Source: Escherichia phage PinkRuby. From it: a stretch of 64,000 bases of DNA. The notes below the pieces were generated by a model that worked only from the letters and a program-made list of their open reading frames with translations, did no database searches and had not been told where the DNA came from. Position numbers and translations under genes: made by a program. This document shows positions 55,320-63,925 of this stretch, piece by piece (position 1 is the stretch's first letter; every line of letters starts with the position of its first letter). The stretch lies in the sequence record PP925839.1. One strand, written 5' to 3'.

Positions 55320-55351
55320 ATTGTAACACAACACGAGGGACTTGTAAACTA
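55320..55351 (-). promoter_or_regulatory. early promoter-like stop/start junction (TAG overlapping GTTTAC, N18, TACAAT)
   Basis: alt copy 1 stop TAG shares its G with GTTTAC; AGGA before ATG of 54998..55288. Confidence 0.5.
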
Positions 55352-57406
55352 CATCTTGAACTTTTTAGACATTCCGTTGATGTTAACCAAAGAAGCCAAG
55401 ATTTGAGAAACTTCGTTTTCCTCTTCTTTTGATTCTTCTACAAGGAATTGATTAAACCCAGCCATTGGACGAACTTCACCAGTTTCCATTAGATGATCGC
55501 CATCATATACCGATTCTTCTAATTGTTCAGAAGGAGGAACGATTGTGCCTTCGATTAGATACTTATTATAAGCAGTTTCTTTCATCATGTACGTGCTCAC
55601 TTTATTAATCTTCAGCAAAATTCCACGCGGTAAAATAACTTCAGCTTCTGATGGAAATCCTGATAAATGACCTGGAACGATAACTTTGATTCGCTCAGCC
55701 CCTTTAATTACCATACCTACGCTAGTTTCAGCGTCTTCATTCGCATAAGCAGAGTGACTACCCATATGCATTAAATCTTCAGCATCAACTGAACCTTCTC
55801 CTTCGCCAGAAAATACTGCGCCGGAATCATCTAGAGCCATATAGTTTTTACCATGCTCACCGAAGATATTTGGTTTAAGCGATGTGGATACGAAGTTCTT
55901 GAAATAGAACATTTTATTTTCAATATTATGACGTAAAGTTTTAAAAGTAACTTCTTGTCCACGATAAAGCGTAGTTCCTGGAGGAAGAACTGAACCTTTA
56001 GCGAATGCAGAATCCATTGTCTCGATGTGTTTAATAGCTCGTTCCATGTATTCTTCACGGGTAGAATCTGGTTTACCCAAGAGGAACGAGTTCATTTCAA
56101 CATATGAATCTGCACAATAATCTTCTATTACATCAGACTCAGCCTGAGTTAATCCTTTTGGAGTTACTTCGGTGCTTGCGTATTCATATGCCTGAGCAGC
56201 AGATTCATTAATCAATTTATAAATGCCATTCATAACAAATTGAATAATAGCTACCTTTTCGTCTGGCGTGGCTTTAGAACCTTTAACTAAATCATTGATA
56301 ATTTTCTTAATAACATCAAAGCTATTAGAAATATTAATGTCAGCGAGATCGCTCAAAATTTTATCGGTTTTATAATCAAAAAATTCTTTATTCTTTAAAT
56401 ATTCTTGAGAACCTTGATGTGTTATATCGCTCTGCAGTCTGATAGACGGATCACGTAAACGTGCATGAGCCAATGCAATATGATTTCGGAAGCTTTCTAG
56501 TTCATAATCGTTAGATTTAAAACGAGAAGCACTTCTCATACCACCGATAGCTCCTTTGCTGAAGTTTGAACCAATCTGGATAACGCCAGAGTTCATTGGT
56601 CCTTCTGCTTTATATACCGGAACTTTAGATTCAAACTCTTGATATTTCTTGGCAGCGAAGCTATCACCCTGAAGCGAAGCATCGACAGTAGAATATTGAG
56701 CTTGTGCTGCCAATCGACGACTAATTTTAGTTTTCTGAATAACAGCTTGATCCGTGCGCTTATCATTTTCTAAAGCAATAGAAGCAGCAACAGCAACAGC
56801 TTTAGGAACAGCATTACCTGTTTTAACATCTACATAAACATCACCAACCTTTGATTCAACTTTTGTGAATAACTCAGTTGAAATAGGAGGTACACCTGGA
56901 ATGTCTTCTAAATTGGCATTTTTACGGTAAACCATAATATATGCATACTTTTTATCGTAATCCCAGATTTCCTTTAAAAGAACATATCGACCTGCTCCTT
57001 TAGTACGTACTAAACGGTCAGCAATAACTTGCATTTGACGAGCTGCACCATTTGTTTTACTTTTTAGTACGCGGAATAGGCATGCGTCAATTTTATACTG
57101 TTTCATTGTTTGAAGAGCAGTATCAAAAACCGCATTAATGACACCAATTGGATTTCCACCCAAGTTTTTAAGTTTAACTAATGATAGTTTCTCATTAACA
57201 CCTATCATTACGATATGCATCATTTTATCGCCTGGCTTAACGTTTTTATTTGTATCACCGCCAGAGGTGTATGTACAAAATCTAAATCCAGGAAGCACAC
57301 TTTCTTCACCGGCTTGAATAGCAAAAATTTGAGGTATTTTATGCTTAGGATTTAAGTTAACAACCGGCGCCGAAGCGCCGTCAAATAATTCTGTAATAAG
57401 TTCCAT
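55349..57406 (-). CDS. alt: Alt-like ADP-ribosyltransferase (copy 1)
   Basis: 685 aa; N-terminus MELITELFD; R-S-EXE motifs LYRGQ, FVSTSL, EAEVILPRG. Confidence 0.85.
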   Translation of the reverse strand: MELITELFDGASAPVVNLNPKHKIPQIFAIQAGEESVLPGFRFCTYTSGGDTNKNVKPGDKMMHIVMIGVNEKLSLVKLKNLGGNPIGVINAVFDTALQTMKQYKIDACLFRVLKSKTNGAARQMQVIADRLVRTKGAGRYVLLKEIWDYDKKYAYIMVYRKNANLEDIPGVPPISTELFTKVESKVGDVYVDVKTGNAVPKAVAVAASIALENDKRTDQAVIQKTKISRRLAAQAQYSTVDASLQGDSFAAKKYQEFESKVPVYKAEGPMNSGVIQIGSNFSKGAIGGMRSASRFKSNDYELESFRNHIALAHARLRDPSIRLQSDITHQGSQEYLKNKEFFDYKTDKILSDLADINISNSFDVIKKIINDLVKGSKATPDEKVAIIQFVMNGIYKLINESAAQAYEYASTEVTPKGLTQAESDVIEDYCADSYVEMNSFLLGKPDSTREEYMERAIKHIETMDSAFAKGSVLPPGTTLYRGQEVTFKTLRHNIENKMFYFKNFVSTSLKPNIFGEHGKNYMALDDSGAVFSGEGEGSVDAEDLMHMGSHSAYANEDAETSVGMVIKGAERIKVIVPGHLSGFPSEAEVILPRGILLKINKVSTYMMKETAYNKYLIEGTIVPPSEQLEESVYDGDHLMETGEVRPMAGFNQFLVEESKEEENEVSQILASLVNINGMSKKFKM

Positions 57407-57409
57407 GAT

Positions 57410-63485: not shown

Positions 63486-63851
63486 TTAAATATCAAATTC
63501 GTTAAGAACTACATCAAAGATTGCTTCAAGATGCTCAGGTTTAGCTCTGTTACTCAGAATATGACGAATCCAAGTTTTAACCAGAAGCTTGCGATTAACG
63601 CCATTCCAGCAAGGATGAGTCCCTAAATCGCGTTGACGAAAATCATCATCCAATGCGATTTGAAAAGAAGAACCTTCTTTCGTGATTGAAACCGTGATGC
63701 CATTTTCAAATCGCATATAAACGTAGTTAGGAGTCATATACTGTTCAATTTCGCATACTGATCCATTTTGATGTTTCCAAAGGCAGATAGTATCAATAGA
63801 ACCTGCAATACCGTTAGAAACATATTTACGTTCAAAGTTGATGTAATTCAT
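63486..63851 (-). CDS. hypothetical protein
   Basis: 121 aa; early promoter-like element upstream (63890-63925). Confidence 0.5.
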   Translation of the reverse strand: MNYINFERKYVSNGIAGSIDTICLWKHQNGSVCEIEQYMTPNYVYMRFENGITVSITKEGSSFQIALDDDFRQRDLGTHPCWNGVNRKLLVKTWIRHILSNRAKPEHLEAIFDVVLNEFDI

Positions 63852-63889
63852 TTTTATTCTCCGAGATGTTTAATTGCGGTACAGGTATA

Positions 63890-63925
63890 TAATATCATAT
63901 CCTGTACCAAAGTAAACTATTTTAT
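63890..63925 (-). promoter_or_regulatory. early promoter-like stop/start junction (TAA...GTTTAC-N17-TATTAT)
   Basis: 8-bp inverted repeat GGTACAGG/CCTGTACC brackets the -10; GGAG before ATG of 63486..63851. Confidence 0.5.

Follow-up and report, generated by a model that had tools for sequence, protein, structure and literature searches.

Two junctions between minus-strand genes of Escherichia phage PinkRuby (sequence record PP925839.1) are very probably occupied by canonical T4-type early promoters (Pe) for the host σ70 RNA polymerase, set in cassettes of the promoter-early stem-loop (PeSL) type with hairpins. The analyzed stretch of 64,000 nucleotides is referred to here as the window. Site 1 lies at the alt/alt.-3 junction and site 2 at the 30.8/30.7 junction, each with the −35 hexamer GTTTAC followed by a TAnnAT −10 element. 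This assignment is supported by computed values for motif enrichment and strand bias, by conservation, and by predictions of hairpin stability and of the masking of a Shine-Dalgarno (SD) sequence. From them we infer the transcription starts, the early timing and the hairpin effects on translation or termination.

The window is of Tequatrovirus (T4-like) origin, with 98–100% identity to phage Ge15 and its relatives. Positions 54900-56400 are 100% identical to Escherichia phage Ge15 and match about 500 T4-like records at 90–99%, and positions 63300-64000 match more than 700 T4-like records. Both elements have near-identical copies in T4. The genes downstream of them were named by comparison with the T4 record AF158101 as follows.

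54998..55288, minus strand: alt.-3 gene, 96 aa, with site 1 as the promoter above it
63486..63851, minus strand: 30.7 gene, 121 aa, with site 2 as the promoter above it

A promoter motif confined to one strand

We scanned both strands of the window and of the whole T4 genome (AF158101) for GTTTAC-N16-18-TANNAT, with dinucleotide shuffles as the T4 background. The window contains seven matches, all on the minus strand, when shuffles give 0.80 ± 0.94 and none of 100 reaches seven. The T4 genome contains 34 matches with none on the plus strand, and its shuffles average 2.31 ± 1.55 and never exceed 7. Relative to the shuffles, exact matches are in excess about 9-fold for the window and about 15-fold for T4. 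A reading of the window made from the sequence alone had proposed one genome-wide promoter class for minus-strand early genes and a comparison with chance frequency as its check. Scan and shuffles place the motif far above chance, and the proposed class holds, as 34 of 34 matches in T4 and seven of seven in the window are on the minus strand and those of the window fall in three separate regions.

Within the 9-kb alt/ligase stretch, the two sites are the only strict matches. The other five, at 2625, 3013, 3351, 7468 and 7798, belong to the following promoters.

2596..2625, minus strand: early promoter at the e.7/e.6 junction; TAA abuts GTTTAC, and a stem TGGGAGTA/TACTCCCA flanks the −10
2984..3013, minus strand: early promoter at the e.8/e.7 junction; TAA abuts GTTTAC, and a 10-bp stem ACAGGCTCAT/ATGAGCCTGT flanks the −10 (z-score −7.5)
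3322..3351, minus strand: early promoter of e.8 type, lacking a strong local hairpin; its upstream region is long and A/T-rich
7439..7468, minus strand: early promoter homologous to the T4 trna.4 promoter (73572); a stem ATAGGGT/ACCCTAT flanks the −10
7769..7798, minus strand: early promoter homologous to the T4 ipI promoter (73939); the −10 lies between the arms of a 10-bp stem, one pair of which is G·U here and G-C in T4

The gap is 18 nt in 32 of the 34 T4 matches, which reads as TTTACW-N17-TAnnAT in the σ70 register. When 31 of these N18 matches were aligned, features beyond the search pattern emerged: A at −40 in 31/31, T at −15 in 24/31, G at −14 in 27/31, and A at 7 nt past the −10 (+1) in 24/31. 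Both sites are also among the few generic σ70 matches with TG directly before the −10. Incidentally, the T4 record AF158101 has an N at about 70330 within the spacer of the e.8/e.7 early promoter, so exact-pattern T4 scans miss this promoter.

Layout of the two sites

The coordinates that the sequence-only reading gave for both sites are all correct on the minus strand. Site 1 consists of the following elements.

55349..55351, minus strand: TAG stop ending the downstream alt paralogue of 685 aa (open frame, 686 codons); the −35 hexamer starts with the G of this TAG (offset −2)
55344..55349, minus strand: −35 GTTTAC of the alt.-3 early promoter; σ70 register TTTACA-N17-TACAAT, identical in sequence in T4
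55320..55325, minus strand: −10 TACAAT of the alt.-3 early promoter, with TGt in front (extended −10) and an 18-nt spacer from GTTTAC
55294..55341, minus strand: RNA hairpin of 17 pairs, three of them G·U; free energy −20.8 kcal/mol, z-score −3.2 to −5.1

The +1 of the alt.-3 promoter is predicted to be the A at 55313, because the T4 consensus has A at 7 nt past the −10 in 24 of 31 promoters. The alt.-3 ATG (55288) lies 31 nt beyond the −10 and is preceded by the SD sequence GAGGA at 55300-55296.

Site 2 consists of the following elements.

63922..63924, minus strand: TAA stop of the 30.8 homologue, followed by ‘aata’ (4 nt) and then GTTTAC; the T4 30.8 stop is at offset −5
63912..63917, minus strand: −35 GTTTAC of the 30.7 early promoter; σ70 register TTTACT-N16-TATTAT, with TTTAC invariant in 16 relatives
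63889..63897, minus strand: extended −10, TGa plus TATTAT (63894-63889), with a 17-nt spacer from GTTTAC; the −10 is invariant in 16 relatives
63878..63908, minus strand: hairpin GGTACAGG-N15-CCTGTACC enclosing the −10; free energy −16 to −19 kcal/mol, z-score about −4.7

The 30.7 ATG (63851) lies 37 nt beyond the −10, with the SD sequence GGAG at 63862-63859. Upstream, the promoter has ATAAAATA at −44..−37, including A at −40. Its N17 gap is an exception, shared by only two T4 matches when 32 of the 34 have N18.

Both promoters would be read by the host σ70 RNA polymerase immediately upon infection. Each would bring together the T4-specific −35 GTTTAC, a TGn extended −10 and TAnnAT downstream of a region rich in A. 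The cassette runs in the order of upstream stop, −35, 5′ hairpin arm, −10, 3′ hairpin arm, SD and ATG, and the upstream gene would use the A/T-rich upstream-element region as coding sequence, ending where the core promoter begins.

Hairpins enclosing the −10 elements

The 8-bp inverted repeat reported to flank the −10 of site 2 is present as GGTACAGG (63908-63901) and CCTGTACC (63885-63878), but it is not special to this site. The hairpin at site 1, overlooked in the sequence-only reading, is larger with 17 pairs. Its 5′ arm (55341-55324) lies within the promoter spacer, most of the −10 and the predicted start fall in its loop (55323-55312), and its 3′ arm (55311-55294) contains the alt.-3 SD sequence GAGGA. 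The 30.7 hairpin, on the other hand, ends short of the SD sequence GGAG.

Hairpins enclosing the −10 are found at six of the seven window promoters, with z-scores of −2 to −7.5. In T4, promoter segments have a mean z-score of −1.87, and 44% of them are below −2. Random minus-strand T4 segments have a mean of −0.08 with 4.7% below −2 (p = 8e-5), and gene leaders without a promoter have −0.58 with 15% (p = 0.0045). The spacers of T4 promoters pair with their own downstream sequence at −9.8 kcal/mol, compared with −6.8 kcal/mol for the downstream sequences of the other 33 promoters (permutation p < 1e-4).

Arm sequences vary from promoter to promoter, and several changes in the stems are compensatory. 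At e.8/e.7, a T-A to C-G change distinguishes ACAGGCTCAT/ATGAGCCTGT of the window from ATAGGCT.AT/ATGAGCCTAT of T4. Related cassettes have GGGAGTA/TACTCCC versus GGGACC/GGTCCC, and CCAC..GTGG versus GCAC..GTGC. IMG/VR provided only two loci for orthologues of the e.8/e.7 promoter, and no Rfam family matches within 54000-64000.

Pairing is also kept in the orthologues of the two focal hairpins. At site 1, 99% of the cells compared across orthologues are paired, and three pairs are altered on one side with pairing kept. At site 2, the hairpin is 100% paired in relatives, with a single G-C to G·U change. Its arms are invariant at 15 of 16 columns among 16 relatives, compared with 2 of 20 columns in the 3′ flank. 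A covariation check of these two hairpins is limited, as the orthologues are too alike or the arms invariant.

Because the arms straddle the −10, either hairpin can form only in read-through RNA that enters from upstream; the promoter’s own transcripts lack the 5′ arm.

Predicted masking of the Shine-Dalgarno sequence

Masking was measured as the energy to open the segment from SD to AUG in read-through RNA, compared with that in the promoter’s own transcript. The probability of SD being unpaired was dropped as a measure, since it is misleading in counting weak local pairings the same as a 17-pair stem. The predicted opening energy for alt.-3 is 14.7 kcal/mol in read-through RNA and 1.9 kcal/mol in its own transcript (15.1 and 1.2 in T4). 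The 30.7 SD is not masked (1.8 versus 2.3 kcal/mol).

The transcript entering alt.-3 from upstream would come from the following promoter.

59527..59534, minus strand: late promoter of T4 type, TATAAATA, ahead of the upstream alt paralogue

Late alt mRNA from this promoter would run into alt.-3 and stay untranslated there, while the early promoter’s own transcript would be translatable. Given the SD in the 3′ arm, the opening energies and the late promoter upstream of alt, Alt.-3 would be made only from its own early transcript. Alt is a protein packaged in the phage head (PMC2988021), which fits the late promoter above alt. The product of alt.-3 (54998-55288) is uncharacterized, and T4 mutants with C-terminal Alt.-3 extensions escape the CmdTAC defence system (PMC11618068), so the timing of alt.-3 expression may matter for the interplay of phage and defence. 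At 30.7, by analogy with a stem-loop of the RB49 PeSL, the hairpin would more likely be an attenuator or a 3′-end stabilizer for upstream transcripts, and its strictly conserved arms would also allow a role at the DNA level.

By prediction, 10 of the 38 promoters of the class have their SD masked by 5 kcal/mol or more. Such masking is found at 33% of promoter-bearing junctions, compared with 11% of other gene starts (Fisher p = 0.014). We tentatively suggest, as a possibility that these folding predictions leave short of probable, a class-wide rule in which SD-holding hairpins enclose roughly one quarter to one third of the early promoters of T4 type and the genes behind these promoters are translated only from their own immediate-early transcript. 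Such a rule would be the early-gene mirror of the late-promoter device at e, soc, 49 and I-TevI, and for alt.-3 the silent RNA would be the late alt mRNA. Provided that it is real, SD masking at alt.-3 and at some ten further T4 junctions explains how small early genes downstream of differently timed genes keep their own schedule. No description of class-wide SD masking by early-promoter hairpins was found in the literature searched, although older T4 literature may cover it.

Stop codons beside the −35

The sequence-only reading had also made the upstream stop codon part of the motif. This part does not hold. TA[AG] lies within 0–4 nt of GTTTAC or overlaps it in 16 of the 34 T4 matches (47%), compared with about 39% in shuffled genomes, which rules out the stop codon as an obligatory element.

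In T4, the annotated upstream gene stops no more than 5 nt from GTTTAC at 10 of 34 matches; in the window, real stops come as near at three of seven. The ten T4 genes are frd.2, nrdC.5, 60, e.7, cd.3, 30.8, ipII, vs.3, nrdC.9 and 61.4. At the remaining T4 promoters, the stops are 7–60 nt off, and four or five promoters lie inside the upstream gene. The abutment of stop and −35 is best read as genome compaction, since compaction predicts such a pile-up of stops at the −35 edge. The abutting stops in T4 have offsets of −2 (TAG sharing the G), −3 or −5, with six at −5 and none at −4. A TAA at −41..−39 supplies the invariant A at −40, and a stop at offset −4 would put T there. This suggests that stops are positioned where the promoter tolerates them.

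Points against the assignment and alternative explanations

Several results weigh against the promoter-and-hairpin reading set out above. The upstream region of the alt.-3 promoter has AAAAA farther up, yet T at −40, where 31 of 31 T4 matches have A, and the −10 of T4’s own alt.-3 copy is weaker (TATAGT); judging from these letters, the alt.-3 promoter may be weak. Double compensatory changes are absent from the orthologues of the alt.-3 and 30.7 hairpins, which have wobble-preserving single changes only. The bias of sense over antisense folding is −2.69 kcal/mol, compared with −1.64 in control segments (p = 0.13), and an RNA-level rather than DNA-level function of the hairpins is not established. 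Neither focal hairpin has a U-tract, so they are not classical intrinsic terminators. An intrinsic terminator is ruled out at either site, and a terminator scan finds only 54972-54993 and 63461-63476.

One alternative explanation, to which the folding bias near that of controls is relevant, is that the hairpins act at the DNA level, either as recombination hotspots or protein-recognized palindromes for cassette shuffling, as in the PeSL mini-circle model, or as operators for early-promoter shut-off. We regard this as unlikely, although several points speak for it. The 30.7 stem is a perfect Watson-Crick palindrome whose arms are as invariant as the −10 (the 15 of 16 columns above) when its loop and 3′ flank vary, and its lack of covariation fits sequence-specific recognition. 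Cassettes are swapped at the same junctions in relatives. The PeSL authors, in a part of their paper on the cassettes, propose recombination there with crossovers in or near the stem-loop (PMC2839356), and the mechanism of early-promoter shut-off is stated as unknown (PMC2988021, PMC3014915). However, the arm sequence differs for each promoter, which makes a single common binding protein unlikely, and a common operator sequence is ruled out, as each arm sequence occurs once per genome in that role. Many stems contain G·U pairs, which pair only in RNA (three in alt.-3 and up to four elsewhere), and the substitutions in the arms preserve wobble pairing. Besides, 8-bp stems with 15-nt loops would be poor cruciforms.

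Improbable to a greater degree is that the stop codon is functional, with a ribosome terminating at the −35 opening the base of the hairpin in read-through RNA, so that the downstream gene is translationally coupled rather than silenced. The real stops within 5 nt of GTTTAC fit this, and the 5′ arm starts 8–11 nt past the stop, which would be near the edge of the footprint of a terminating ribosome. On the other hand, base composition alone accounts for the frequency of TA[AG] beside GTTTAC, the stops of many promoters in the class are 15–60 nt away or the promoter lies inside the upstream gene, and a terminating ribosome would reach only the outer 2–4 of the 17 stem pairs at alt.-3. We give hardly any credence to both sites being functionless chance matches to an AT-rich promoter-like pattern. 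A generic σ70 consensus scan of 54900-64000 shows no enrichment, with hexamers at chance level (36 matches versus 34.8 expected), and one mismatch allowed in the specific pattern yields 13 matches versus 8.6 expected, mostly as added noise. Yet the enrichment of the exact pattern and its complete strand bias stand against chance, both sites lie in a gap of 60–70 nt immediately above SD and ATG, and conservation of both extends to T4 and more distant genera, in contrast to their diverging flanks. The shuffles together with the strand bias rule out the chance explanation.

Cassettes exchanged between relatives

The cassette at the e.7/e.6 junction (2540-2650, minus strand) shares 49 of 60 positions with the T4 motB promoter (T4 7130-7240), the stem changes being paired, and fits it better than T4’s own e.6 promoter (T4 69890-69990), which matches at 42 of 60 with gaps. 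Around this cassette, the start of the e.6 coding sequence is identical to T4 at 117 of 120 positions, and the end of e.7 at only 82 of 120. From these alignments, a mosaic boundary seems to fall at this promoter cassette, as expected under the PeSL shuffling model.

At the alt/alt.-3 junction, Dhakavirus JS98 and ABTNLsp5 retain the TAG overlapping GTTTAC, and in VR7 (Gaprivervirus) the alt stop is 3 nt upstream of GTTTAC. In all three, the remaining alt.-3 cassette is swapped for another whose spacer contains a small hairpin (CCACAAGGATGTGG; GCACAAGGAAGTGC in VR7). This cassette type also occurs at T4 2458 and 50973.

Neighbouring genes and hairpins

Two full-length paralogues of alt (ADP-ribosyltransferase) lie in tandem at 55349..57406 and 57410..59506 on the minus strand, 3 nt apart and 42% identical to each other, whereas in T4 a single alt gene is accompanied by the fragments alt.-1 and alt.-2. 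A GGCCTTCGGGCC hairpin precedes the late promoter TATAAATA (59534-59527) above the pair. It is one of three very stable tetraloop hairpins at gene ends, located at 63461-63476 (GGGGCTTCGGCCCC), 59545-59556 (GGCCTTCGGGCC) and 54972-54993 (GGGGACCGTTCGGTCCCC). The last one is also a feature of the alt.-3 transcription unit.

54972..54993, strand not assigned: bidirectional terminator hairpin between the convergent genes alt.-3 and 54, ending the transcription unit; annotated as a terminator in Ge15

Phage Ge15 (PP359696), the nearest relative in the databases, has genes annotated as the transposases InsC and InsD at 17410-18444 within its 30.x region. They are absent from the window, where an intact 30.2 homologue lies at 61470..62309. 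For a lytic T4-like genome such as that of Ge15, an insertion sequence is unusual, and it could be real or an assembly artefact.

Comparison with known systems

The finding mainly confirms textbook T4 biology, namely very strong σ70 promoters, a phage-specific −35 and minimal intergenic gaps. The promoter elements and the cassette layout were already known from T4 early promoters and PeSL, and what may be under-described is only the possible class-wide masking of SD sequences by early-promoter hairpins. For annotation, GTTTAC-N18-TAnnAT with A at −40, on the minus strand only, is a specific marker of Tequatrovirus early transcription units.

The T4 Pe consensus comprises an A-rich upstream region, GTTTAC, TGn and TAnnAT (Liebig and Ruger, Wilkens and Ruger, and Miller et al. 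2003, summarized in PMC1524935 and PMC2988021). GTTTAC at −36..−31 is the T4 early −35 signature (PMC1524935), and T4 early promoters have been described as ‘uber’ promoters for the host σ70 polymerase, composed of upstream element (UP), −35, TGn and −10 (PMC2988021). About 40 early promoters are listed for T4 (PMC9161530), consistent with the 34 strict matches. The two sites are alike in the −35 hexamer, σ70 spacing (TTTACW-N17 at site 1), TGn, minus strand and position directly above small early genes, and probably in an A-rich upstream region. They differ in that the spacer of site 2 is 1 nt shorter (N17), which only one other T4 match has in common, and that site 1 has T in place of the otherwise invariant A at −40.

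PeSL cassettes were defined in phi1 and RB49 as a stop in an AT-rich region, −35 and −10, a stem-loop with G-T pairs, SD and start (Arbiol 2010, PMC2839356), with the stem-loop mostly between −35 and −10 or overlapping −10 in the part of that paper describing its position. A section of Comeau 2014 (PMC4122927) adds the PST/T4 pair, for which the consensus is TTTACW-N17-TAYWAT. Both sites have the same parts in the same order, including a stop just 5′ of the −35, a stable stem-loop, and SD and ATG at the 3′ end. The cassette is likewise repeated through early regions (7 in the window, 34 in T4) and replaced between relatives at e.7/e.6, e.8/e.7 (L030) and alt.-3 (JS98, VR7). On the other hand, the stems of RB49 and phi1, where PMC2839356 describes them, are mostly polyG/polyC, and here each stem has its own sequence. 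The stem-loops of PST/T4 are drawn just upstream of the promoter in a section of PMC4122927, and those found here straddle the −10, which is the RB49-type position. The attenuating or 3′-end stabilizing role comes, in the relevant passage of PMC2839356, from a reporter assay of one RB49 PeSL stem-loop only, and masking of SD by the 3′ arm is not discussed in the passages on these cassettes in PMC2839356 and PMC4122927.

In T4, the genes e, soc, 49 and I-TevI are known to have promoters embedded in hairpins (McPheeters et al. 1986, among others; review in PMC3014915). There, as predicted for alt.-3, the promoter lies in the 5′ half of the hairpin and the ribosome-binding site (RBS) in the 3′ half, so that read-through RNA is untranslatable and RNA started internally is translatable. 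By prediction, RBS masking of this type is found at alt.-3 and is absent at 30.7. The internal promoter of those genes is a late one (TATAAATA) giving late-only translation, whereas that of alt.-3 is early, of σ70 type and below a late-transcribed gene. According to the folding model, the logic would be mirrored at alt.-3 into early-only translation.

The cassettes also resemble lambdoid morons (promoter-gene-terminator), in which small accessory genes with their own promoter and hairpin form a movable unit. Morons differ in having no conserved repeated cassette bounds and usually the opposite orientation, and their regulatory sequences are not believed to drive exchange, as a passage of PMC2839356 puts it.

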